The position numbers and the translations under genes are program-made. From positions 354,196 through 418,195 of the forward strand of contig CAVRAL010000004.1 in assembly GCA_963719085.1 (NCBI GenBank): DNA of 64,000 nt, given 5' to 3'. Source of the stretch: a candidate division FCPU426 bacterium (GTDB lineage: Bacteria > Oederibacteriota > Muellerivitia > Muellerivitales > Muellerivitaceae). Within the stretch, counting starts at the first letter, position 1. Every line of letters starts with the position of its first letter. Shown piece after piece: positions 20,828 through 62,930 of this stretch. The notes under the pieces were generated by a model, which saw only the letters and a list, made by a program, of their open reading frames with translations, searched no databases and was not told the DNA's origin.

Positions 20828-23800
20828 TCAGTTTACGGCTAAATCCTTAAGCAGTTTTTGGACGGACGCCAGGCGGCCTTCGGGGCCCTCCTCGCCTTTG
20901 GAAACCCGGAAAGAAATGGAGCGCGCGTCGTTGGGCGAAAACCGGATCCGGGTGGGCGGCCATTGTTTCATCCATTTCTCAATCCGTGAAACGGCCGGCG
21001 CTAAATCCGGATGCCATTGAAGAAACACCCAGCCCCCTTGGGCTTCCAACCGCTGAATCCCCAACGCCTTCACTTCGGGCCGCAGGGCGGCGATGCGCAT
21101 CAAGGTTTTCGCTTCCTCGGGCGGTTCGCCGAAGCGGTCTTTTAATTCATTCGTGATTTCACGCAGTCCCGCCTCATCCTGGGTTTCCACCAGCCTTCGG
21201 TAAAACTCGATCTTCACCGCTTCCTCAGGGATGTAGTCCTTCGGCAGGTAGGCGCTTAGGCCCAGGGAAAGCACCGGCGTGAAATCCAGCGGTGTTTCCT
21301 CACCCTTCATCTGGGCCAGTTCCTGGGACAACATGCGGCTGTAAAGATCAAACCCGATCGAGTCCAAGGTCCCATGCTGCTGGGTACCTAAAACATTTCC
21401 CGCCCCGCGGATTTCCATATCCTTCATGGCGATGTGCATGCCGGACCCCAACGACGAGAATTCTTGGAGCACTTCCAAGCGTTTTTGCGCCAACTCACGC
21501 AGGGTCAAGTGCCGGGGATAGAAAAAGTAAGCGTAGGCTTGGCGGTTCATGCGGCCCACCCGGCCCTTGAGCTGGTGCAGTTGGGACAGGCCGAAAAGAT
21601 CGGTACGCTCCACGATCAGCGTGTTCACATTGGGCATGTCCAGCCCCGACTCGATGATCGAGGTACAGACCAGCACATGATATTCCTTGTCCACAAAATC
21701 CATCATGATCGATTCCAGCTCGTGCTCGGAAAGCTGTCCATGGGCCACGGCCAGCTTGGCCTCGGGCACCAGCTTATGCAGCTGGTCGGCGATGCGTTCG
21801 ATGTCGCGCACGTGGTTGTGGACGTAAAAGACCTGGCCTTCCCGGTTCATTTCCCGCCGGATCGCCTCCGCTACCAGCTTGTCATCCATGGGCCCGACCT
21901 GGGTGGAAACCGACAGGCGGTTTTGCGGCGGCGTGTCGATGATGGAAATTTCCCGGATGCCCGACAGCGACATATGAAGCGTTCGGGGGATCGGGGTGGC
22001 CGTCAGCGTGAGCACGTCGACATCCGTCTTGAGCGACTTGAGCTTTTCTTTTTGCGACACGCCGAAACGGTGCTCCTCGTCGATGATCAAAAGCCCCAGC
22101 CGGGCGAACTTAATGTCTTTGCCTAAAAGCCGGTGGGTTCCAATGACGATGTCCGCCCGGCCTTCCCGGACGTCCTCCATGGTTTTTTTAACCTCGGAGG
22201 CGCTTCGAAAGCGCGACAGCATTTGAATATTGATGGGATACTCGGCCATGCGTTCTTTAAACGTGTTGAAATGCTGCTGGGCCAAAATGGTGGTGGGCAC
22301 CAAAACCGCGACTTGTTTTTTGTCCTGCACCGCCTTGAAGGCCGCCCGCATGGCCACTTCGGTTTTTCCGTAACCCACGTCCCCGCAAACCAACCGGTCC
22401 ATGGGCCGGTCGCTTTCCATGTCTTTTTTCACGTCCTTGACCGCGTGGTACTGCCCGGGGGTCAGCTCATAGAGGAAGGCGTCCTCAAACTCGTTTTGCC
22501 AGGGCGTATCCGGCGGCAGGGGTTTCTTTTTGATCATCTGCCGGGTGGAATAAAGCGCCATCAGTTCCCGCGCGATGGCCTCGATCTCGCGGCGCACCTT
22601 GGCCTTGGTCCGGCCCCATTGCTCATTGCCGAGCTTGGAAAGGACCGGCGACCCTTCGGCGCCGATATAGCGCTGAACCAGGGCGATCTGGTCCGTGGGC
22701 AGGTAAATCTTCTCGGAATCGGCGAATTCCAGCTGGATGTATTCCCGGGTCACCCCGTCAATCGTCAAGGGCGTCAAGCCCCGGTAAAGGCAGATGCCGC
22801 AATCCACGTGGACGGCCCAATCCCCCAGGGCCAATTCGGAAAGCGACGACAAGGGTTTTCCGCCCGCGATCGCCCTTTGGCGCCGGTGGCGGCCGCCCCG
22901 GTAACGCCGGAACAAATCGTGGTCAGGAATCACCACGCGTTTGATCTCATCCAGAATGAAGCTTTGCTCGATCTCGCCCAAGAGCATGGAGATCTGCGCG
23001 TTGCCCTTCGGGCTCAATTCGGCTTCTTGCAAGAGCTCGGTCAATCTTCCCTGCTCGCCTTTGTTGTGGCACCACAGCGTAACGTGAACGCCCTCCGCCA
23101 GCCATTTTTTGAGGTCGGCGGTGAAGGTGGCGAACTTGCCGTAATAAGGCGGCAGGCTTCTCCCCGGCACCCGGACTAAATTTTTAGGCGTTTCACCGAA
23201 TAAAAGCTGGTCCAACTGGCCTAGGGCCGCCGCGCGGCCCGAGGCCAACACTTTCTTCCAGTTTTTCAAATCCCCGAACATCTCTTCCACCGGATAAAGG
23301 TCCGACCCTTCTTCCTCGGCTTGGCGGGCGCAAGCGTCGAGCAGGCCTTGAAGTTCCTCAGCCTTGCGCTCGATCGCGACGGGTTCCACCAAAATCAAGC
23401 GGCAATCCTCGGGAAGATAATCAAAAAGGCTCGCCCGCTCGTCGAAGGCGCCCAAGGCGTGCCAGGGCCAGCTGGGAAAGCGTCCGGTTTGAGCGAAAAG
23501 ATCCAGCGCGGTTTGGGCCCAACGGGATTCTTCCCGCGCTTTTTCTTTGAGCGCCCTTTCCAGTTTTTTGCGGACCACGGGTTCCAGCACCAATTCATGC
23601 GCCGGAAAAACCCAGACGTCATTCAGCTCGCCGCTGGAGCGCTGGCTTAAAAGGTTCAGCGGCCGCACCGAGGTGATCGTGTCGCCGAAAAGTTCCAGCC
23701 GCACCGGGCCCGAGGGCGATCCCGGCGAGGCCAAATCCAAAATCCCGCCCCGCATGGCGAATTGTCCCGAGGAAACCACCTGGCTCACGGCCTCATAGCC

Positions 23801-50119: not shown

Positions 50120-51496
50120 TCAGTACCTGAAGAAAACCAATGTTTCCAATAGGAACGAGGGCAAAAGAAAAGGAATCGCCCAAACCAAATATCCCCCAAA
50201 AGACGGCATCTTAACGCCGGCCTTTTGCGCCACGGCCTTCACCAAAAGATTCGGGCCGTTGCCGATGTACGTCAGCGCTCCCATAAAAGACGCCCCGCAG
50301 GAGATGGCGATGAGCGCCTGGGGGAACCGCTCGGCTAATTCGTTGAGATGATTGGGCCCAATTCCCTGCCGGCTGGCGGCCAACACGCAAAAGTTTAAAT
50401 AGACCGGCGCGTTGTCCAAGATACTGCTGATGGGACCGGCGGCCCAAAAAAATTGCCAGGCTTTCGTCAGCGGCAAAAATTGTCCCTGAAGGGCTAAAAG
50501 CCCCAGCAAGGGAATCATGGCCCCAAAGATGCCGAAAAAAAGGATCGCCAATTCCAGGATGGGCCGGAAGTGGAACTGGTTTTCCCGATGGATCCGTCCG
50601 AGAGTGGTTTTATAGGAGACCCAGGCGGTCAGGCCCATAAAAAAAATCTGGAAAATTTTCGAGGCGTCTTCAGCGCCCGTTTCCCCGAGCGATGGCGTTA
50701 AAGCCGGGACCAGCCCATAACCTGAAAATAGAATCCCGCCGACGATCAAGAACAGCCACCCGATATTCTTCCACCCTTCCAATCGAAAAGGCGTGTTGGC
50801 TTTTAATCGTACGGCCGTTCTTTTTTCCCGCTTCAGGAACCACTTATCCGTCAGGTAAAAACAAATCAGCAGCAACCCCACCCAAAAACCAAAGGCGGGA
50901 ATCAGATGGAGATTCCAGAAAAAGGGCACCTGTTTTAAAAATCCCAAATAAAGCGGCGGCCCGAGCGGCAAAAAAGCTCCCGCGTTGGAAACGATGAAAA
51001 TAAAGAAAACCACCAGGTGGACTTTATCCTTACGTGCGCGGTTGGAATGAAGAAAGGGACGGATCAAAAGAAGGCTGGCCCCGGTCGTTCCCAACAGGTT
51101 GGAAAGCAGGGCCCCGCTTAAAAGAAAAAGGCTGTTGCCGCCCGGCGTTCCGCTGGGCCCGCCGGAAAGCCGGATGCCTCCGCTCACCACGTAAAGGGAA
51201 GCCATCACCATCACGAAGGCGGCGTAGTCCAGATAGGTTTGAAAAACCCGGTCCCAATCGCCCGACACCCCAACATAAACCCCAATCCCAAGAAGGGCGA
51301 AAAAACCACTGACCATGATCTGGCGGGACGGTTTTTCCCACCAACGGGCGGTTTGGGACATAAAAGGTAGCAGGATCAATAGAACCAGTAAAATACCGAG
51401 GGGCGCCGCGTCCCGGGCTATTTCAAAAACGCTCAAGGTGGATGAAGGGAGGGTGCCCATCAGCTTGGCCTTTCCAAAGACAGTTTGAACCGCCAA
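50120..51496 (-). CDS. ion-transporter-superfamily (ArsB/NhaD-like) permease
   Basis: 458 aa, ~12 TM helices. Two re-entrant-loop motifs SNAGAFLPLGPP and IGNGPNLLV typical of the IT superfamily. Not an Amt-family protein. Confidence 0.6.
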   Translation of the reverse strand: MAVQTVFGKAKLMGTLPSSTLSVFEIARDAAPLGILLVLLILLPFMSQTARWWEKPSRQIMVSGFFALLGIGVYVGVSGDWDRVFQTYLDYAAFVMVMASLYVVSGGIRLSGGPSGTPGGNSLFLLSGALLSNLLGTTGASLLLIRPFLHSNRARKDKVHLVVFFIFIVSNAGAFLPLGPPLYLGFLKQVPFFWNLHLIPAFGFWVGLLLICFYLTDKWFLKREKRTAVRLKANTPFRLEGWKNIGWLFLIVGGILFSGYGLVPALTPSLGETGAEDASKIFQIFFMGLTAWVSYKTTLGRIHRENQFHFRPILELAILFFGIFGAMIPLLGLLALQGQFLPLTKAWQFFWAAGPISSILDNAPVYLNFCVLAASRQGIGPNHLNELAERFPQALIAISCGASFMGALTYIGNGPNLLVKAVAQKAGVKMPSFGGYLVWAIPFLLPSFLLETLVFFRY

Positions 51497-53759: not shown

Positions 53760-54902
53760 TTAGAACACAAACGCGGTCGACAAAGTCGCCGTCAACTGAT
53801 CGGCGCTGTTGCCACCAAAGGAACCAGCTCCGGCTCCCGGAACGACGCCATTGACTAATTCGTAGTCATAACGGCCTTCCAAGGAAGTCGTCCAAGCCGG
53901 GGTAAAGGCATGGGTCAAGGTCAAAGTAGCTTCCCGACCTTCGTCGGTTTGACCAGCGCCCAAATTATAGAGGCCCAAACGACCTTGGATATCCTTGAAC
54001 TCCTCAACGCGAAGAGCCGCAGACCAGTCGCTGGCAATAGTGTACTTGCCATAAAGAGCAACGCCCCAATAATCGGCCGAGGTGTAGGACTTACCGCCGA
54101 CGCCGGTGAAGGTGCCACCCGCGTCTTGGGCGCCGTATTCGGCATCCAAAGCCAAGGCAACGTCAGAAGCGGCGTTGTAATCAATGATGGCTTCCGCAAC
54201 ATAGGCGTCATTGCGGTTGGAACCAGTCAAGCCGGACACCGAGCCCGGGCCGTCAATGGCGTTCACAACGACTTTCCAGGTGCTGTTCGGGGTCCAAGCC
54301 AACTCGCCGCCGAAGGTTTGCGCATGGAAACGAGCCGTAAGGGTCGAATTCCAGCCATCCGTGGCATAGGCAGTGATCGACAGGGTCGGATCAATCGCAT
54401 AGCCCACAGACAGACCTTGGTTCCAAACCGGGATGTAACCGAACAACAGCGAATGGCTGTAGTTCCAGTTGCTTTCAGCTTCCACCACTTCATTACCCAT
54501 CCAGGTCGTGAAACGGCCACCGGTCAACGTCCAAGCTCCGGTCGTGTACTGGGCATAAGCCTGCAAAACGCCCAAGTTCGTGCCACCCGGCAAAGCCAAG
54601 CCAGCAATGTTGCCGCCATCGACATAAGCCAATTCCACCACACCCGAGGCAGCACCTTGGGTAGCGGTAATTTTGGTTTCAGCCAAGCCAATGGAATAAG
54701 AGCTGTCAACGCTGTTATACCAGTAGCCCAGATTTCCAAAATTTCCCAACTTCTTAGCCTGGTTAGTGAAGTTGTACGTGTAGTACGCGTCCACCAAACC
54801 GTCGACCTTCACGGTCGGGGCAGCCGTATCGGCCAAGACGGGCGCGAAGCCCATCAAAACCAACGAGGCCACTAAAGCCAAAGCCTTAATCGTCTTATTC
54901 AT
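53760..54902 (-). CDS. outer-membrane porin (beta-barrel)
   Basis: 380 aa. Signal peptide ...GFAPVLA, alternating beta-strand pattern rich in G/Y/T/N, C-terminus ...LSTAFVF. Confidence 0.7.
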   Translation of the reverse strand: MNKTIKALALVASLVLMGFAPVLADTAAPTVKVDGLVDAYYTYNFTNQAKKLGNFGNLGYWYNSVDSSYSIGLAETKITATQGAASGVVELAYVDGGNIAGLALPGGTNLGVLQAYAQYTTGAWTLTGGRFTTWMGNEVVEAESNWNYSHSLLFGYIPVWNQGLSVGYAIDPTLSITAYATDGWNSTLTARFHAQTFGGELAWTPNSTWKVVVNAIDGPGSVSGLTGSNRNDAYVAEAIIDYNAASDVALALDAEYGAQDAGGTFTGVGGKSYTSADYWGVALYGKYTIASDWSAALRVEEFKDIQGRLGLYNLGAGQTDEGREATLTLTHAFTPAWTTSLEGRYDYELVNGVVPGAGAGSFGGNSADQLTATLSTAFVF

Positions 54903-55430
54903 CGCTTCCTCCTAGAAAAATTAAAACTACTTATTCTCCACTCTCTCCACCAACCATCTTTCTGAACTTCCATCAGGGACAGAAAGAAGCCCTACATGAC
55001 CATGGGTTATAGCAGAGCAAAGCCTATGCCAAAAGGGGTTTGTTAACGATTTGTTAAAAAAATATGAATTAGGGCCCTTTTCGCCCTTTGAAACACCCCC
55101 TTTTTGCTGGGAAAAATGGGCTTTCCCTTCGATTATTGTCCACTTCTACAATTTTGTTTTTTAAGCGTTTTTTACGCTTCCTTTACGCCTGATCCAACTG
55201 CTTTTTCAAAAAAACTTCCAAGACCCGCCATTTCCGGTTACCCACCACGAAGCCAACAATCACTATGAACCTCGATAACCAGCTGACAAATTCAGCTTTG
55301 GTAATCGTCATCCTAAGCTTGTTGCTGACCCAAGGATCTAATTTTTAGAGTCATGCCCCATATTTGATATACCGGCCTAATCCAAGATTACTATTAAAAT
55401 GAACCCCGAAGTAAATAAGGCTTAAATATG

Positions 55431-55460
55431 AAAAATCGGAGAAGCGAAAGCTCCGATTCG
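55431..55460 (+). other. hairpin (aatcggag-aagcgaaa-gctccgatt) ~70 nt upstream of the island ATPase gene
   Basis: 8-bp perfect inverted repeat inside the AT-rich island leader. Possible operator or attenuator. Confidence 0.3.
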
Positions 55461-55528
55461 AAATATTTTTCAAGAATACCAGGTGCCATACAATAGTTTT
55501 TAGCACTTATTTCGTTGGGAGTTTTGAC

Positions 55529-56863
55529 TTGATAAAGTCTTTAAAAATAGAAAACTTTAAAAGTTTCGAAATATACACGATTCATTTTGATCGTTTGAAT
55601 TTATTAGTCGGCGGCAACAACTGCGGGAAAACAACTATTTTCCATGCTTTACAATTTGTTTTTTGGTGCGTGGAACAAACAGCAAATATCGATGATGACA
55701 GTGTTACTTTTTTAAAAGCACAAGTAAGTGAAATACCAGTTATTCCATACTTTAATCAACGCGACATCTTCCACAAACAAAAAGTTCGCAAAGGAAATGC
55801 GCCTGCTCGAATTCGGCTGACAGTTGAAACAGACGTAGCTCCTCCATTGACCTTTGTTATTTATCCTGCTTTTAGTAGGAACTTACTTGTTAGCGGCGAA
55901 AGTAAAACAATAACTCGCAAACAATATGATGATTTAATAAAAGTCAAACCAACATATATTCCAGGAACTATAGGTATAACCGTTAAAGAAGATTTATACC
56001 GGGTTGTAGCGCAGGAACGAATGATTGCCGACGGAAGACAAAATCAAGTTATCCGTAATCTTGTGTTTCGTTTAAAAAACAACGATAAAGGCGGGGACGA
56101 ATGGCATGATTATGTCGACGTAATGAAATCACTATTTTTGCTTAGCGGAATTGAAATTCCTTTCAACGAAAATAGGGACGAATGGCTCACTGCAATTTAC
56201 AGCGAGGGCGATTGTAAATTCGATTTTGTTTCTGCGGGTTCCGGATTTTTGCAAGCGGTTAATCTTTTAACATTCTTATTTTTGCACGAAACAAAAGTGG
56301 CCTTAATAGACGAACCAGACTCACATATGCACGAAGATTTACAAAAGTTAACTCTCGATAAATTAGACCAGTTATCCAAGAAAAAAAACATACAACTTGT
56401 AATCGCTACACACAGTCCTACATTCATTGATGCTGCTGGCCTTCAAAATGTGATCGTAATTGACAACAAACTGCCGCTACCTTTAAAAGCTCAAAATGCT
56501 GAGGATCTATTTCCGATGCTAGGCGATAGAGGTCTAGCCATGCCACCAATGAAAGTAATGGACACTTTAAAATCCAGAAAAGTTTTGTTTGTTGAAGATT
56601 ACGAATCAGATTTTCAAGATTTTTTGAACGAATTGGGCGAGGTTTATAAACCCGGTTTCAAAGCAAGAGTTAAAGATTTGACGGTTATTAGCACAAAAGG
56701 AATTACTAGTAGTTGGCCGTTCGAAGCCATTGCTTGCTTTGAAAAACTGCTTGGAACGAAAATTGATTATGTTTACGTTTCGGATAGAGATTTTCATACA
56801 GACGAAAACGTACTCGAAAGAGAAGCGCGGGCTCGCAAGGAGAAAAAAACATTTTCCATTTAA
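55529..56863 (+). CDS. OLD-family-like ABC ATPase with C-terminal TOPRIM-like motifs (probably the N-terminal ~440 codons of a longer gene; see next feature)
   Basis: TTG start with GGGAG RBS. Walker A LLVGGNNCGKTTIFHAL, Walker B/D-loop ALIDEPDSHMHEDL, H-loop LVIATHSPTF. Then VLFVEDYESD (TOPRIM Glu) and YVYVSDRDFH (DxD). ~35% GC versus ~59% background. Confidence 0.7.
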   Translation: MIKSLKIENFKSFEIYTIHFDRLNLLVGGNNCGKTTIFHALQFVFWCVEQTANIDDDSVTFLKAQVSEIPVIPYFNQRDIFHKQKVRKGNAPARIRLTVETDVAPPLTFVIYPAFSRNLLVSGESKTITRKQYDDLIKVKPTYIPGTIGITVKEDLYRVVAQERMIADGRQNQVIRNLVFRLKNNDKGGDEWHDYVDVMKSLFLLSGIEIPFNENRDEWLTAIYSEGDCKFDFVSAGSGFLQAVNLLTFLFLHETKVALIDEPDSHMHEDLQKLTLDKLDQLSKKKNIQLVIATHSPTFIDAAGLQNVIVIDNKLPLPLKAQNAEDLFPMLGDRGLAMPPMKVMDTLKSRKVLFVEDYESDFQDFLNELGEVYKPGFKARVKDLTVISTKGITSSWPFEAIACFEKLLGTKIDYVYVSDRDFHTDENVLEREARARKEKKTFSI

Positions 56864-56913
56864 ACCGCAGAAATCGCGAATCCTACCTACTCTCGCCGAT
56901 TATTCTTTCTTCA

Positions 56914-57381
56914 GTGTTGTCAAAAAAGTGGACTGAAAAAAATCCAGGCAGAAAAAACGACTTTTATACAACTGAAAGATTGAATAAATTCGTGATAGAC
57001 GTCGCAAAAGAACTTGAGGAAGGAACAAGAACGAAATTCACGATTTCTCATGACCCCGAATTACGAGGGGATGCCAAACATAAAACCGAGATTCTTCAAA
57101 AACTAAATGAATACTTCAAAAAAGAGTACTCTGAAAAAATTCAAAATAATGAGTTGCCTTACAAATTGCTAGACGCAAAAGAAACTTTGAAAAAAATACG
57201 AACAACAGTTTCTCAGGAATTTAAAGTTTCTTTTTCTGATAAGGAACTATTAAGTCATTTTAAAGTTTCCGATATACCAGAAGAAATAAAAATGATTATC
57301 GATAAAATATTGGAGATGTATCCCGGCAGTAAAGACCTCTCAGAAAAAATGACTGCATCAGAACAAAAAAGACTTTTTTAG
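56914..57381 (+). CDS. 155-aa ORF (GTG start), probable C-terminal part of the OLD-like gene
   Basis: Its reading frame is open upstream back to 56788 and overlaps the 3' end of the ATPase ORF in the -1 frame. One extra A in the A7 run at 56843-56849 fuses the two ORFs into ~620 aa. Confidence 0.5.
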   Translation: MLSKKWTEKNPGRKNDFYTTERLNKFVIDVAKELEEGTRTKFTISHDPELRGDAKHKTEILQKLNEYFKKEYSEKIQNNELPYKLLDAKETLKKIRTTVSQEFKVSFSDKELLSHFKVSDIPEEIKMIIDKILEMYPGSKDLSEKMTASEQKRLF

Positions 57382-57416
57382 TCGGCAGTGAAATTCGGAA
57401 ATTTTCTTAGTGGTTT

Positions 57417-57845
57417 TTAACGGGATTTTTTGACTCGTAGAAGTTTTCGTCTTTTTAAAATCCACTTCTTCCAAAGTGGATCTTTCCATAATTTCTTAAG
57501 CTTTATTGAAACCTTACGTTTTGAATATCTCGAGTGCTTTACCCCAAGCGCAAGTGTATTACCTTTTAATTGTTTTCTTCGGAGCTGAATAATCGAAGAA
57601 CTTTTATTTAATTTTATCAACTTTCGTCTCAAATTATCCCTTGCTTCTCTTTTCAGCTTTAGTTTTTTTCCCTTTGTATTTACATTCCCAATTTTTAAAA
57701 ATCCAATCTTTTTCCTAACTTCTAAACTATGAATATATTTTAGTCTGTATTTCCGCTTATACTCTTCCACACTTAATTTGTGCTTATTAAGATGCGTTCC
57801 AGTTAAAGTTTTAAATATGGCTTCACATTCATTACATCGAATCAC
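57417..57845 (-). CDS. MucR/Ros-type zinc-finger protein with Lys/Arg-rich C-terminal tail
   Basis: 142 aa. CNECEAIFKTLTGTHLNKHKLSVEEYKRKYRL aligns with the Ros/MucR zinc finger C-x2-C-x9-10-H-x3-H followed by (T)PEEYR.KW.L. The remaining ~100 aa are >40% K/R. Confidence 0.6.
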   Translation of the reverse strand: MIRCNECEAIFKTLTGTHLNKHKLSVEEYKRKYRLKYIHSLEVRKKIGFLKIGNVNTKGKKLKLKREARDNLRRKLIKLNKSSSIIQLRRKQLKGNTLALGVKHSRYSKRKVSIKLKKLWKDPLWKKWILKRRKLLRVKKSR

Positions 57846-58116
57846 GATTAGTAATCCCGTTTTCTATTAAAAATGCTTGAAGACGCTCTGAAATCATAGA
57901 TATTTCTTCTATGGACAACTTACCTCTGTTTAGACATGCGATTATTTCTAGAGTTAGAGGCCCGATTAAGGAGTGATAAATAAAGGTAAAGCGCTCTCCT
58001 TTTTCCTCTTCGGTTCGTGGATCCAAAAGTCGTTCCGGCAACACAATATTATTTATAACTTGTGGTTCTAAATAGATACTCAAAGCATAAAAAATGTTTT
58101 CTATGTCTTTTTTCAT
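57832..58116 (-). CDS. hypothetical 94-aa protein, translationally coupled (14-nt overlap) to the MucR-like gene
   Basis: ATG with AGGAG 13 nt upstream; low-GC. No recognisable motif. Confidence 0.4.
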   Translation of the reverse strand: MKKDIENIFYALSIYLEPQVINNIVLPERLLDPRTEEEKGERFTFIYHSLIGPLTLEIIACLNRGKLSIEEISMISERLQAFLIENGITNRDSM

Positions 58117-58310
58117 TATTACTAATATCTCCTAAAATTATTCCTAAATGCTTTATTGAATCTTCGCAAATAAATCAGTTTCACCTTCAATCCCCCGCTT
58201 AAGCGACTTCCCTATTTAACAATAATTTTCATTCCGCCAAGGGATTTCCAATTCCAAAACGTCTATAGTATTGCCCCTCGCCGCTTATTTTGAATCAACC
58301 GGAGTTTTAC

Positions 58311-59135
58311 GTGAATTTTCGCCAACTGGGGATCATCGCCTGGGCCTTGACCACCCTTAGCGCGCAGGCATCCCCTGTCGCCACCCAGCCCCACGTTTCG
58401 GTGGAACTGATCAGCCAAACCTCCACCCTTCAACCGGGACAGCCCGTCACGCTAGGCTTTCACTTTAAGATCGACCATGGCTGGCATCTTTATTGGTCCA
58501 ACCCGGGCGACTCAGGCCTGGCGCCCGAATTTATCTGGTCCCTGCCCGAAGGCTTTTCGGCCCAGCCGGTTCTTTGGCCCACTCCCCAGAGGCTGGCCGC
58601 GCCCTCTTTAATGGACTACGGGTACAAAAGTGACGTGCTTTTCATGGTGCCGGTCCAGGTTCCGGCGGACGCCCATCCGGGGGAAATCATCAATTTTTCC
58701 GTTTTGGCCCGCTGGCTGGTTTGTAATGAAATCTGCATTCCGGGCCGGGTCACGCTCAGTTTGAAAATGGTGGTAAAGCCCAAAAATCCGGGACCCTCCA
58801 AAAGGGCCAAGCTTTTCATCGCCGCTGCGAAAACACTGCCCCTGCCCTGGCCGGCTTCCTGGAAAGCCCAAGGCGCCTTGGACGATAAGGCCTTTCATTT
58901 ATCCGTGACCACAAGTGAAAAACCTTTGGATGCCTGGTTCTTCCCTTTGAACCCCAATCAAATGGATAACCCCGCTCCCCAGAAATTCCATTTGGCGGCC
59001 CATACCTTTCACCTGACTTTAAAACGGTCCGATCAGCTCACGACGGACGTCCAAACCCTCGACGGATTGATTGTTTTGAAAACAAAAAACGGGGCCAAAG
59101 GTTATTCATTGACGATTCCCCTGTCGGCGCAATAA
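58311..59135 (+). CDS. periplasmic DsbD-alpha-like (DsbC/ScsB N-terminal-type) domain protein
   Basis: GTG start with GGAG RBS gives signal peptide MNFRQLGIIAWALTTLSAQA. ...DHGWHLYWSNPGDSGLAP... and CNEIC Cys pair resemble the DsbD alpha-domain. Confidence 0.55.
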   Translation: MNFRQLGIIAWALTTLSAQASPVATQPHVSVELISQTSTLQPGQPVTLGFHFKIDHGWHLYWSNPGDSGLAPEFIWSLPEGFSAQPVLWPTPQRLAAPSLMDYGYKSDVLFMVPVQVPADAHPGEIINFSVLARWLVCNEICIPGRVTLSLKMVVKPKNPGPSKRAKLFIAAAKTLPLPWPASWKAQGALDDKAFHLSVTTSEKPLDAWFFPLNPNQMDNPAPQKFHLAAHTFHLTLKRSDQLTTDVQTLDGLIVLKTKNGAKGYSLTIPLSAQ

Positions 59136-59164
59136 TCTATTTTTAAAAATTGAAGGAGAAGACC

Positions 59165-59791
59165 ATGAAATCATTCCATCCAATCTTGAGGTTCCTGGTT
59201 CTGGCGGCCTTTGCCGTGAGTGGAAGCGCCTTTGCCGCGGCGGTCGGCCAACCCGCGCCCAGCTTCACCACCGTCGACACCAACGGAAAACCGGTGATGC
59301 TGGCCAACCTCAAGGGAAAAACCGTGGTCCTGGAATGGCACAATCCGGATTGCCCCTTCGTTAAAAGCCAGTACCAGGGCAAGATGCAAAAACTGCAAAA
59401 AAAATGGACTAGCCAAGGCGTCATCTGGCTTTCGATCAATTCTTCCGCTCCCGGCCTGGAAGGATCCGTGGACGCTTCGGAGGCCAACGAGGACGTGAAA
59501 TCAAATCAATCCAACGTGACCGCAACCATTCTGGATCCCACCGGCAAAATCGGCCACGCTTACGGGGCCAAATCAACGCCTCATATGTTCGTGATCAATC
59601 CCAAGGGAATTCTGATTTATAACGGCGCCATCGACAACGCGCCTCTGGAAGACGCGGTGTCGGACAAAACGCAAAGTGGGGCTCCCTATGTCAATTACGT
59701 CGATCAGGCTTTGACCCAATCCCAAGCGGGCCAGAAAGTCACCACGCCTTCCACCGCCCCTTATGGATGCGGCGTGAAATACGTCGACTGA
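59165..59791 (+). CDS. periplasmic thioredoxin-fold (redoxin-like) protein
   Basis: ATG at 59165 with AGGAG RBS 6 nt upstream (MKSFHPILRFLVLAAFAVSGSAFA signal). ...VVLEWHNPDCPFV... thioredoxin-like active-site region with a single Cys. Confidence 0.55.
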   Translation: MKSFHPILRFLVLAAFAVSGSAFAAAVGQPAPSFTTVDTNGKPVMLANLKGKTVVLEWHNPDCPFVKSQYQGKMQKLQKKWTSQGVIWLSINSSAPGLEGSVDASEANEDVKSNQSNVTATILDPTGKIGHAYGAKSTPHMFVINPKGILIYNGAIDNAPLEDAVSDKTQSGAPYVNYVDQALTQSQAGQKVTTPSTAPYGCGVKYVD

Positions 59792-59819
59792 CCGTTCCTC
59801 TTTAACCCGCCAAAAAAAT

Positions 59820-59852
59820 AGGCCCCGGGAAAACCCCATGGGCCTTTTTTAT
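59820..59852 (+). terminator. rho-independent terminator after the thioredoxin-fold gene
   Basis: aggccccggg-aaaa-ccccatgggcct followed by ttttttatttcc. Confidence 0.65.
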
Positions 59853-59954
59853 TTCCAAGTCAAAAAGCGCGAACTTACGCTTGAGTTATTTAAATCGAAA
59901 GATAAAATCGGGGAACTATCGGGAAGCCCATCCAGCCGGTTTTCAAGGAATCCT

Positions 59955-60239
59955 ATGCCAAGCTACAAAGTCTCCCACATTAAAGTTCAGGGCGTGGACC
60001 TGGTGATTGTGTTTGTACCCCATTCTTTTCCGGTCGAGGGACACCGGGCCCAAAATGAGGCCATCTTGGAATTGGAACGAAGGACCAAATTCCTGGGTTG
60101 GGCGGGGAACGTGGTTCCGGTTTGGAAAAACGACAACGGTACCACGGGTTTCATCGCCCCGGAAAGCCAGCACCCCTTCTTTAAAAGCGTGTCGTTTGAT
60201 TCGCTCGCCAAAAACATCAACAAAGAATTGTCCTGGTAA
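59955..60239 (+). CDS. hypothetical 94-aa protein
   Basis: ATG at 59955 with AAGGA RBS. The ORF-track start at 59838 lies inside the upstream terminator, so it was moved. Confidence 0.4.
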   Translation: MPSYKVSHIKVQGVDLVIVFVPHSFPVEGHRAQNEAILELERRTKFLGWAGNVVPVWKNDNGTTGFIAPESQHPFFKSVSFDSLAKNINKELSW

Positions 60240-60248
60240 TTCCGCGCC

Positions 60249-60866
60249 TTACTTCGCCAATTCGGCGCTGGCGGTGACGCCGCCGCTCCAATCCTGGTTC
60301 GGGTCGTAGGCGTTCAGGCGGCCCAGGTCCTTTTGTTGGCGCGGCTCCACGCGGATCCATCCGTCATCCAAATCCGCATCCATATTCACCAGGGTCGTGG
60401 CGCCAATGCGCACGTCCACAATCTTGTCCGAACTGTTGAAAACCAGGTAGCTCACGCCGTTGTTGGCGTCGTCCTGCTCAAAAAGAACACCCGGTAAATC
60501 GGCCGAACACCAGGCGGCGTAATTGCGGCCGGCCTTACTGGAAGCCGAGGCCCCCGGCCGCGCGCAAGAAGGCGTGGGAGAACCGGAAGGAGTTAAGGCG
60601 GGTGTCGCTTCAGGTGTCGCGGCCGGATTGCTGACGTCGTCCCCCGGAACCGGGGTCGGCGTGGAATCGGCATTCGATATCACCGTGGCAGTGGACGCGG
60701 GGGTTGGTTCCGGCCCGGTTTGGGCCCAAAGCAAAGGCATTCCGGTTCCCAACGCCAGGGTCAAAATCGCGGTTTGGATTATTTTTTTCTTTCGCACAGC
60801 GCCCTCCCCGTCTTCCCGTTTCTTTTTCAATTGGCCACCCTCATTTAGACGCTTCCCCCGCCCCAA
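60249..60866 (-). CDS. secreted hypothetical protein with Pro/Thr-rich N-terminal region
   Basis: Signal-like segment KKKIIQTAILTLALGTGMPLLWA (true start is probably internal, near 60785). No known domain. Confidence 0.45.
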   Translation of the reverse strand: MGRGKRLNEGGQLKKKREDGEGAVRKKKIIQTAILTLALGTGMPLLWAQTGPEPTPASTATVISNADSTPTPVPGDDVSNPAATPEATPALTPSGSPTPSCARPGASASSKAGRNYAAWCSADLPGVLFEQDDANNGVSYLVFNSSDKIVDVRIGATTLVNMDADLDDGWIRVEPRQQKDLGRLNAYDPNQDWSGGVTASAELAK

Positions 60867-60875
60867 ACCGGACGG

Positions 60876-62801
60876 TCATTCATGGTCATCGTCCTTCGGT
60901 GGTATTTTGGAAAACCAATAGCCCGAGTAAAAAATCCGGGTCCGCCCTCGATTGTCTTCCGCCCGTAAAGTTCCCCCATCCCCGTAAAAAAGTCCCGGGA
61001 CGGTGGCCTCCTGGTCGGAAAGCGGCAAAAGCGCCACCCGGTAATCTTTTTCTTTAAGGTCAAAAGCCGGCAGGGAAACCTTCATCTCCACCGTTAAAAA
61101 CCCATCGCGTTCGGTTAAATGCAGGGTTTGAAACTGAAGCAAGGGCTCTGGGTTTTCTTCCATATAGTCCCCTTCCCGCGCTTTCCAAGCCGCGGGGATC
61201 GGCGCCGCGGATATTTTTTGAAGCGGCAACACAAAAGACAATCCGCCCAAGAGCGCGACTTGTTCGTGGCCGATGACGGCGAAAGAAAGCGGGTATTGGG
61301 GCAGGTCCACCGGGAACAAAAATAAGAAAACCAAATGCGGCACGAAGGTATCCTCGGCCACCGGCAAAAGATCCACCCGGTAACCGGTGAACTCCGCCGA
61401 TAAGTGGTTGTCCTGCCGGGAAATGCGGACCAATTGGCCCAGGGCCGAATAGTCCCCGGTATCCTTTTCCAATTCCTCGGTCGGCACGGGCACCAAGGGC
61501 GGCATGGTGACTTTTGGCTTTTCCAAGTTCATGGGGGCTCCGGTCTTAGCGCGCAGCATCAGTTTCAAGGCCCGGGCCACCGTCTCGCCGGCCAATTTAT
61601 CCGCCTCATTGCTGTTGGCTAAAAAAACCACGCCCAATTTTTCTTGCGGCAGCACGGCCACCTGGCTGGTATACCCCGGATATTCCCCGCCCCGCCAAGC
61701 CGCGGCTTTGGCGCCTTCCACCGAAATCCCGCTTAAACGCCAGCCCAACCCGAAAGACTGTCCGAAATCCAAGGGCAATCCTTGAAATTGGGGCTTCCAC
61801 ATTTGCGCGACGGTTTTACGGCTGAGGGGGGCGGGACCGCCGGAAGTTTTCCCTGCCAATATAAATTGCAGAAACTTGGCCATATCGTTGGCGCTGGAAA
61901 TCATTCCAACCGCCGGAACATCCCGGTACCGCGGAACCTCAAAAAGGTTTCCACCGCGGCAACCGGGGGCCAGCGTCCTCGTGGAATCCAAAGCCCCGCC
62001 AAAGGAAGAAGAACTCATCCCCAGAGGCTCAAATACATCTTTTCGCATGGCGTCCGGAAAACTTTCTTTTTTCTCAACCTCGATGACCCGTCCCAAAAGA
62101 TCGTAATCGACGTAAGAGTACTTATAGAGCGTTTGGGGCGGCGCGACCATATAGTCGGACTGGAGCCCCTTCACTAAATCCGACAGACTGGGAGAAGGGT
62201 CGCCCCACATCCCCCGGTAAAAAAAGCCGGGCAGGCCCGAATGCTGGGCCAGTAAAGACCGCAAGGTGATGGGTTTCGTGTTTTTAAACCGGGTATGAAT
62301 CGAAAAACCGGGCAAGGCCAAAGGATCTTCCAAACCCACCATATGGGCCTGAACTAGTTTCATCGTTTCCACCGCGGTGAAAAGTTCCGATGTCGCCCCC
62401 AAACGATAACGTGTGTCTTCCGTGGCCGCTTCATGGGTCACCGGGTCGGCTTGACCAAATCCCTTGGCCCAAACGATTTTTCCCCCATCGACCAGCGCCA
62501 CGCTGAATCCCTTAACGTTGTCCTTCCCGACTTTATCCAGCAAATAGGCGTTCAGATTGGAGACGGCCTCCGAATAATCGGCATGGGGATTAACGGTCGG
62601 CGTCGCGGTGACCGTAAAGGTCGCGGTCAGCTGAGGCGTGGGCGGCAAAGTGGGAAGCGCCGTCATCGGAAGCGGGGTTCCGGATGCGGTGGGAGTGACG
62701 CCCGCTGATTGGGCAAAAAGCGGGGCTCCGGGGAAAAACATCAAAAACCAAACGATGTTTTTGTTCATTTTAAGGAATCCTGAGACTCGGGATGGAACCA
62801 A
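60876..62801 (-). CDS. beta-lactamase-fold (class C / PBP-like) protein with degenerate catalytic motifs plus ~200-aa C-terminal domain
   Basis: 641 aa. Signal peptide. Fold-typical ...GFSVALVDGGKIVWAKGFG...YRLGATSELFTA... but SxxK reads SELF, YxN reads YSY, and no clear KTG. Confidence 0.65.
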   Translation of the reverse strand: MVPSRVSGFLKMNKNIVWFLMFFPGAPLFAQSAGVTPTASGTPLPMTALPTLPPTPQLTATFTVTATPTVNPHADYSEAVSNLNAYLLDKVGKDNVKGFSVALVDGGKIVWAKGFGQADPVTHEAATEDTRYRLGATSELFTAVETMKLVQAHMVGLEDPLALPGFSIHTRFKNTKPITLRSLLAQHSGLPGFFYRGMWGDPSPSLSDLVKGLQSDYMVAPPQTLYKYSYVDYDLLGRVIEVEKKESFPDAMRKDVFEPLGMSSSSFGGALDSTRTLAPGCRGGNLFEVPRYRDVPAVGMISSANDMAKFLQFILAGKTSGGPAPLSRKTVAQMWKPQFQGLPLDFGQSFGLGWRLSGISVEGAKAAAWRGGEYPGYTSQVAVLPQEKLGVVFLANSNEADKLAGETVARALKLMLRAKTGAPMNLEKPKVTMPPLVPVPTEELEKDTGDYSALGQLVRISRQDNHLSAEFTGYRVDLLPVAEDTFVPHLVFLFLFPVDLPQYPLSFAVIGHEQVALLGGLSFVLPLQKISAAPIPAAWKAREGDYMEENPEPLLQFQTLHLTERDGFLTVEMKVSLPAFDLKEKDYRVALLPLSDQEATVPGLFYGDGGTLRAEDNRGRTRIFYSGYWFSKIPPKDDDHE

Positions 62802-62930
62802 TCAGGCGCGCTTTTTTCGTCCATGAGCCATTTTAACTTTTTTGAGCGGGAGTTACCTTGAAAATAGATTCTATCTCGAAAACGGGCTTTAGGGAAAAGC
62901 CAAACGCCAGACCATGATTTCTCGAGTTAT

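Follow-up and report, generated by a model that had tools for sequence, protein, structure and literature searches.

A frameshifted, divergent OLD-family ATPase-Toprim gene and a rare zinc-finger gene pair, probably two separate modules, in an AT-rich islet of a candidate division FCPU426 genome

We analyzed a window of 64,000 nucleotides from a candidate division FCPU426 bacterium (assembly GCA_963719085.1, contig CAVRAL010000004.1, positions 354,196 to 418,195 of the forward strand). It contains an AT-rich islet with a predicted ATPase-nuclease gene of the OLD family, interrupted by a frameshift at a run of seven adenines (A7), and a pair of small genes on the opposite strand. The guanine-cytosine (GC) fraction of the islet (55218-58250) is 0.355 compared to 0.542 for the remaining window, and the local profile stays at 0.30-0.40 across approximately 55250-58250 and at 0.52-0.59 in the flanks. 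The 3-kb segment with the lowest GC of the 64 kb is the islet itself, about 4.5 standard deviations under the mean (mean 0.533, standard deviation 0.040). An earlier note on this DNA had described a fall from about 59% to about 35% GC; the low value of the islet was confirmed, and the flanks, measured at 52-59%, are not uniformly at 59%. The open reading frames (ORFs), the motifs and the A7 run of that note were all found where it had placed them. The islet and its large gene are laid out as follows, ABC standing for ATP-binding cassette.

55218-58250, no strand: AT-rich islet, GC 0.355, between the region upstream of a porin gene and a DsbD_N-like gene
55529-57381, plus strand: predicted OLD-family ATPase-Toprim gene (AriAB-like), 617 codons with one A added, frameshifted as sequenced
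55529-56863, plus strand: 5' ORF as sequenced, 444 amino acids, TTG start, with the full ABC ATPase and the first part of the Toprim domain
55610-55633, plus strand: Walker A, GGNNCGKT, with the invariant K34 at 55628-55630
56306-56413, plus strand: Walker B/D-loop LIDEPDSHMH (D261, E262) to the H-loop (H295)
56594-56791, plus strand: Toprim acidic residues before the frameshift, E356 (56594-56596), D361 (56609-56611), D419 (56783-56785) and D421 (56789-56791)
56843-56849, plus strand: A7 run, site of the one-nucleotide frameshift; eight adenines (A8) would restore ...KEKKNIFHLNRRNRESYLL...
56851-57381, plus strand: out-of-frame 3' part with the RRNRESYLL motif, E451 (56878-56880) and a helical C-terminal domain; stop codon at 57379-57381
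56914-57381, plus strand: downstream ORF as sequenced, 155 amino acids

The large gene had been described as an ABC-type ATPase followed by a TOPRIM-like region, the architecture of the OLD family, and Pfam, the alignment of its homologues, Foldseek and a widened profile agree with this description. We confirmed in the gene the motifs GGNNCGKTT, LIDEPDSHMHEDL, ATHSP, VLFVEDYESD and VYVSDRDFH. Over 50 aligned sequences, the ATPase columns G28, N30, G33, K34, L259, D261, E262, P263, D264, H266, H268 and H295 are invariant, as are the Toprim columns E356, D419, D421 and E451, and D361 is present in at least 90% of the sequences. The ATPase half matches the Pfam families AAA_15 (expect value, E, 1.8e-24) and AAA_21 (E 5.4e-15). 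The PADLOC models AriA, GajA, AbiLi, Old and PtuA match the window protein in its ATPase part only.

As sequenced, the two domains do not share a single reading frame, since the ORF stops at codon 444, ahead of E451. The -1 frame is open from 56788, and one added A gives a 617-amino-acid ORF ending at 57381. A search of 5.8 billion protein clusters with this fused model as the query recovered the exact 444-amino-acid ORF (P0001) and about 80 single-ORF homologues (595-640 amino acids, a few of 730-800), which are 42-57% identical and span 97-100% of the fused model. The 50-sequence alignment runs unbroken over the junction, which reads ...ARKEKKNIFHLNRRNRESYLLSP next to a family consensus of HLxRRNRESYLLEP. 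Judged by these alignments, the fused model of about 620 amino acids is the true architecture of the family, as had been proposed earlier from one extra A in the A7 run. A natural split variant, with two genes as in AriA/AriB, had been offered as another option. This candidate was rejected because the frameshift, after the DxD (D421) and before the last invariant Glu (E451), interrupts the Toprim fold itself, whereas two-gene PARIS is divided where the ATPase meets the Toprim domain.

A lesion of one homopolymer base could be real or could come from the assembly. In the Logan assembly of run ERR11630394, a contig of 10.5 kb matches window positions 55333-62863 (about 7.5 kb) at 100% identity, A7 and the 444-amino-acid ORF included. 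A survey of the window counted 294 homopolymer runs, among which the A7 is the sole one splitting a gene. Two other candidate gene-breaking sites, at 50193 and 11064, resolved into normal neighbouring genes. The identity ratio of the C-terminal to the N-terminal part is 0.725, compared to 0.711 ± 0.045 in the other 46 family members, so that no extra divergence is seen after the frameshift, and every invariant residue is kept in the out-of-frame part. This lack of extra decay suggests a recent event, and we consider that the loss of one A (A8 to A7) is probably a real, recent frameshift. The same observations could also be read as an intact gene (A8) in the organism, with A7 as a sequencing or consensus error, in which case the islet would carry a working single-gene OLD/AriAB-like nuclease. 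One homopolymer base is indeed the only defect in 617 codons, the invariant residues are kept on both sides, the downstream part has diverged no further than in other members, and the 1.29-Mb source contig suggests a long-read assembly, prone to homopolymer indels. However, the independent Logan contig carries the identical A7 over 7.5 kb, and the other 293 runs of the window break no gene, which argues against a systematic homopolymer error. We thus regard such an error as rather unlikely.

The A-run could also act as an on/off or low-expression switch, if DNA slippage (phase variation) or transcriptional or -1 ribosomal slippage on G-AAA-AAA-A occasionally restored the 617-amino-acid enzyme and held a toxic nuclease at a very low dose. 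In other bacteria, restriction and defence genes controlled by homopolymer switches are well documented; here, a -1 shift on the A-run gives exactly the family-consensus sequence, and the downstream frame is undecayed. However, the equivalent site has no A-run in five homologue loci, a stable RNA structure was not found downstream of the run (z = 0.18), the G that precedes the run makes the heptamer imperfect, and A7 is short for efficient slippage. Moreover, an A8 variant was not found, the nearest other protein being 57% identical. We give this switch a slim chance in comparison with a recent loss-of-frame mutation. Under the latter, the 444-amino-acid product retains the whole ATPase along with four acidic residues out of five and most likely has its nuclease off, because it lacks the fifth metal-binding Glu (E451) and the entire helical domain.

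The family placement of the C-terminal half required more indirect comparisons. The C-terminal 314 amino acids alone had no match in Pfam or PADLOC at E<=10, and a C-terminal profile built from the clade only returned noise against the PDB sequences. The AlphaFold (AF2) model of the full-length 617-amino-acid protein reached a predicted local distance difference test score (pLDDT) of 88, and its top Foldseek matches were TsOLD of Thermus scotoductus (6p74) and GajA, over 560-690 alignment columns, nearly the whole length. TsOLD 6p74 was also the best match of the whole-protein profile against the PDB sequences (E 2.3e-18, positions 254-421). At E<=1e-3, the C-terminal profile gathered 691 cluster representatives from 1.84 billion proteins, mostly of about 580-640 amino acids with the domain at the C-terminus. 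Its distant relatives bear the motifs FVEGxxD ... DRD ... EIENYLL, match PADLOC AriAB at E 1e-20 to 1e-28 and match Pfam DUF4435 at 2e-5, just under the cut-off. With the widened profile A3, AriB topped the PDB sequences at E 0.0047. This profile aligns AriB E26, D30, D88, E90 and E122, which are its metal-binding residues (PMC11464382), to E356, D361, D419, D421 and E451 of the window protein, through the motifs VEGxxD, DRD and ENY. Curated models recognized the ATPase half as AriA (PDLC02979, E 1.1e-24) and found nothing in the C-terminal half at E<=10; matches to PADLOC AriAB were weak and limited to 4 of 27 clade members. Taken together, the profiles and the predicted fold indicate an OLD-family enzyme whose nuclease half would be of the AriB/DUF4435 type. 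The gene resembles the known single-gene AriAB fusions, since the nearest counterpart of its C-terminal domain is AriB, which serves PARIS as its DUF4435 Toprim effector. In a review of the OLD family, single genes fusing an ATPase to an AriB-like Toprim were left open between class 1 and class 4 (PMC10568477).

A housekeeping paralogue of the RecF/SbcC/SMC type, against which the earlier note had proposed to check its reading, would share the ABC head. This head is all that the matches to such families cover, and they fall far under the family cut-offs (22 bits for RecF compared to 172). Moreover, the coiled-coil arms are absent, the C-terminal domain is Toprim/AriB-like, the GC is atypical, the gene is missing from the same locus in a relative (related contig L091), and the spread is patchy, with one close relative in 185,579 species-representative genomes. 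We consider a housekeeping origin extremely improbable; the sub-cut-off scores and the Toprim domain contradict it.

The surroundings of the homologues were then read at the loci retrieved. No conserved partner gene was observed in any homologue locus read, which makes the nuclease gene a stand-alone gene. Seven of the eight loci have no adjoining helicase, and the SNF2 helicase of the eighth (P0046) belongs to a methylase system. P0046 (L085, 4434-17056) has an SNF2-NOV_C helicase on one side and a DUF1156 methylase on the other, followed by PIN, HEPN_Swt1/DUF499 and HD-CE genes; this locus is a defence island of the helicase-methylase-ATPase type. P0005 adjoins a SNIPE/T5orf172 nuclease and an AAA_14/DUF4143 ATPase, P0053 is near Vsr, an integrase fragment, RelE/MqsA and Fic, and P0021 has HepT/MNT 5 kb off. 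A full-length relative of 26% identity, annotated as 'AAA family ATPase', was observed on plasmid pNsp_c of Nostoc sp. ATCC 53789 (L092, NZ_CP046706.1, 70190-72067), between pglX and pglZ of a BREX-1 operon that has a HEPN-domain gene between brxC and pglX. In agreement with what the earlier note had anticipated, relatives thus occur in defence or mobile contexts in several loci (P0046, P0005, P0053, pNsp_c). The homologue genes are 8-18 GC points under their flanks in five loci. The OLD protein had no match in the curated phage records, and in the curated plasmid records its relatives did not exceed 31% identity.

The remainder of the islet is occupied by two overlapping genes, convergent to the nuclease gene.

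57417-57845, minus strand: basic protein of 142 amino acids, GTG start, with an N-terminal Ros/MucR-type finger (C4, C7, H18, H22)
57832-58116, minus strand: protein of 94 amino acids, overlapping the 142-amino-acid ORF by 14 nucleotides

The whole 142-amino-acid protein scored 24.2 bits against ROS_MUCR (Pfam PF05443, E 3.6e-5), under the cut-off of 25.4, and its isolated N-terminus scored 27.3 bits, over this gathering score. Positions 65-103 of the 123 of the model are matched, in all three homologues as well, and C4, C7, H18 and H22 are invariant across the finger homologues. The Ros/MucR zinc finger that had been assigned to the N-terminus is thus supported by both its profile score and its invariant C2H2 residues. 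The tail carries two basic repeats of the form HS-x-x-x-(K/R)-x-K-(I/V)-(G/S) and holds 38% Lys/Arg over residues 41-142, slightly less than the value of more than 40% given earlier. Membership of these repeats in NUMOD3 was rejected, E-values of 0.57 and 2.9 indicating a resemblance and not membership. The 94-amino-acid protein belongs to no family in Pfam, NCBIfam, PADLOC or PHROGs, and the family scans detected no nuclease domain (HNH, GIY-YIG or other) in either protein. The cluster search (5.8 billion) returned two homologues of the 142-amino-acid protein (70% and 47% identity) and one of the 94-amino-acid protein. Among curated phages and plasmids, the finger protein had no match, and the 94-amino-acid protein had none in phages. 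The pair occurs in the same order in L091, L089 and L090, where an ORF related to the 94-amino-acid protein precedes the finger gene; the pair of L089 is also AT-rich (33-37% GC) beside DNA of 50-59% GC.

Beyond these three close homologues, the nearest relatives of the finger protein are the N-termini of finger-HNH-QueD proteins on two metagenome contigs (L093 and L094), with 34% identity over 82 amino acids (residues 1-83, E 2e-11). In L093, ROS_MUCR and HNH both score over the cut-off. Compared at the level of sequence, the finger protein is best interpreted as a DNA-binding module without a nuclease, similar to those at the N-terminus of HNH homing endonucleases. On the two metagenome contigs, single ORFs (L093, 1535-2488; L094, 5536-6447) join a Ros/MucR-type finger, an HNH endonuclease and a 6-pyruvoyl-tetrahydropterin synthase (QueD), a radical-SAM QueE-like gene adjoins, and the QueE-like ORF of L094 (3781-5430) itself bears an HNH-like insertion. 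These loci resemble 7-deazaguanine genes that homing endonucleases have invaded, and they probably come from phages.

The pair and the OLD gene had been presented as one three-gene defence unit, to be looked for in relatives. The finger and 94-amino-acid genes were absent from about 95 loci with ATPase-Toprim relatives, tblastn finding the window's own copy only. Conversely, L091 keeps the pair without the OLD gene. This contig aligns to window 57936-57452 at 77%, and its positions 951-1279 align to 55217-54888 at 84.6%. Between the two alignments, it has about 450 bp with a 108-amino-acid ORF in place of the 2.2-kb OLD segment of the window. The pair and the porin flank are thus conserved and the cargo downstream of the finger gene is variable, since L091 keeps both and swaps the OLD gene. 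The C-terminus of the 108-amino-acid ORF (591-917) matches the end of phrog_14556 (E 3.4e-12). This ORF also has an N-terminal hydrophobic segment, a Cys/His motif (HRASC...CSICDP) and a weak Ada zinc-binding match (E 0.15).

These distributions bear on the role first ascribed to the finger protein, an H-NS-like AT-binding silencer that, with the 94-amino-acid protein, would regulate the OLD gene within a single three-gene defence island. MucR proteins are AT-preferring silencers, the finger matches the DNA-binding part of Ros/MucR, the entire islet is AT-rich, and the genes are convergent and adjacent. However, no OLD homologue locus has the pair, and the pair is found without the OLD gene in L091 and in L089/L090. 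In addition, with a finger beginning at residue 4, the protein lacks the MucR oligomerisation domain needed for silencing, and HNH endonuclease N-termini are its nearest relatives apart from the three close homologues, so that a homing-endonuclease-like binder fits better than a silencer. The silencer and the single island are thereby very doubtful, and we favour two separate modules.

The borders of the islet are formed by the following segments.

54888-55217: conserved left flank with the porin gene start and its upstream region, common to the window and L091
54902, minus strand: start of the porin gene (Pfam BBP2, E 2.3e-46)
55218-57451: variable cargo segment with the OLD-like gene; the L091 alignments stop at window 55217 and 57452
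58290 (TTG) or 58311 (GTG): start of the DsbD_N gene (Pfam, E 1e-19)

The repeat search at the islet edges gave short chance matches only and nothing att-like of substance, no integrase was found among the genes checked around the islet, and ARAGORN placed no transfer RNA (tRNA) gene near it, in agreement with the earlier description of borders lacking such features. No Rfam family reached its gathering score anywhere in the 64-kb window. The sole ARAGORN call of the window, at 21743-21818 (plus strand), is a tRNA-His with the unusual anticodon ATG, for which Rfam gave no match at the gathering score or at E<=1. This call is probably spurious, which would leave the 64-kb window without any tRNA gene. 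The independent Logan contig (L001) starts at 55333, which lies about 115 bp to the right of the left edge (55218) of the segment absent from L091, and this start may be an assembly-graph break from strain variation at the islet border. Further to the right, we observed a 133-amino-acid ORF with no Pfam family at 59838-60239 (plus strand) and a 205-amino-acid Pro/Thr/Ala-rich ORF at 60249-60866 (minus strand), directly downstream of a redoxin gene. The independent assembly also calls genes at both positions, the second one as 182 amino acids.

Overall, we consider it likely that horizontally acquired DNA makes up this small, composite islet, in which a frameshifted stand-alone OLD-family gene of a divergent clade and a separate rare gene pair do not form one system. 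Several points weigh against this interpretation. The link to AriB draws on a structure prediction and on profile matches that are transitive and of modest E-value (0.0047), because direct comparison of the window protein's C-terminal domain with Pfam, PADLOC and the PDB sequences gave no match. The resemblance of the basic repeats to NUMOD3 lies far under threshold (E 0.57 and 2.9), and A7 is known from assemblies, which leaves a small share of the probability to a homopolymer error. Moreover, P0002, P0050 and P0057 are in unremarkable surroundings, with some homologues among housekeeping genes, and the defence role of the clade would follow by analogy.

By analogy with PARIS, P2 Old and class 1 OLD enzymes (PMC11464382; PMC12445682; PMC12392090), the ATPase of intact family members would hold a two-metal Toprim nuclease inactive until a phage cue brought about an ATP-dependent change licensing the cleavage of nucleic acids. 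Like AriB and P2 Old, such an enzyme might cut the anticodon stem-loops of tRNAs, or it might cut DNA. Translation or replication would then halt, the growth of the infected cell would stop and the infection would abort. We infer the trigger, the substrate and the abortive outcome from this analogy. In the window copy, one A would have been lost from the poly-A tract (A8 to A7), leaving a 444-amino-acid product with the nuclease off. The pair of 94 and 142 amino acids would mark a slot with differing downstream cargo, the OLD gene here and a gene of 108 amino acids with a phage-family domain elsewhere. A bolder version, which we hold to be a long shot, would see in the pair a conserved anchor for miniature cargo hotspots of a new kind. 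In that case, a nuclease-less DNA binder derived from homing endonucleases would mark or maintain a slot where defence or phage-derived genes swap between related genomes, and the OLD clade would stand functionally midway between class 1 OLD and PARIS, with a slippery A-run keeping its dose low.

Under the composite reading that we favour, the nuclease gene is a divergent, locally disabled member of an already known family, and the pair and its cargo swap are minor leads. With about 80 sequenced members, most of them metagenomic, the divergent clade is an addition to the OLD/PARIS family and falls in the gap between class 1 and class 4 flagged by the 2023 OLD review (PMC10568477). Since the Pfam and PADLOC models miss the nuclease half, defence annotation probably under-counts such genes. 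The local copy suggests that a toxic nuclease gene can be silenced by one homopolymer base, and calls such as '444-aa ATPase' and '129/155-aa hypothetical' (lengths in amino acids) ought to be merged. The finger/94-amino-acid pair and the cargo swap are small leads on islet turnover and leave the known mechanism unchanged.

In comparison with known systems, the finger protein differs from Ros/MucR by its finger at the extreme N-terminus, followed by a basic repeat tail, and by its lack of an N-terminal oligomerisation domain. It shares with these proteins the spacing C-x2-C-x10-H-x3-H, the Cys-to-His span of Ros and an EYxxKY segment after the finger. The homing endonuclease modules of L093 and L094 carry an HNH domain, whereas the 142- and 94-amino-acid proteins of the window have no nuclease domain; in these modules as in the 142-amino-acid protein, a Ros/MucR-type finger is followed by basic 'x-E/P-V/I-R/G-K-K-I-S' repeats.

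For the nuclease gene, Gabija GajA (class 2 OLD) and the OLD protein of retron Eco8 (class 3) have the same two-domain architecture. GajA is further matched over 670-690 Foldseek columns, and many PADLOC GajA models match the ATPase part. In contrast with Gabija, no GajB/UvrD-like helicase adjoins the gene here, and in contrast with retrons, the islet has no reverse transcriptase-like ORF, no reverse transcriptase or noncoding RNA lies beside the homologues, and the window has no Rfam family. Compared to class 1 OLD (P2 Old, TsOLD 6P74 and the Vibrio cholerae class 1 OLD), the window protein has no Pfam OLD-like_TOPRIM match and only 12-19% identity to TsOLD. It shares with this class the ATPase-Toprim order, the length of about 600 amino acids, TsOLD as best match by both PDB-sequence profile and Foldseek, and a stand-alone gene with no conserved partner, the stand-alone context being the criterion of class 1 (PMC10568477). 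The single-gene AriAB fusions (PARIS, 'Class 4' OLD; PADLOC AriAB PDLC02981) differ from the window gene in several respects: its Toprim half is undetected by the PADLOC AriAB/AriB models or Pfam DUF4435, the ENYLL motif reads RESYLL, E. coli AriA is no nearer to the ATPase than PtuA or TsOLD are, and the window copy is frameshifted. They are alike in joining, in one polypeptide, an ABC ATPase to a DUF4435-type Toprim and a helical domain, and all five acidic residues of the PARIS effector AriB have aligned counterparts here, with near-identical spacing.

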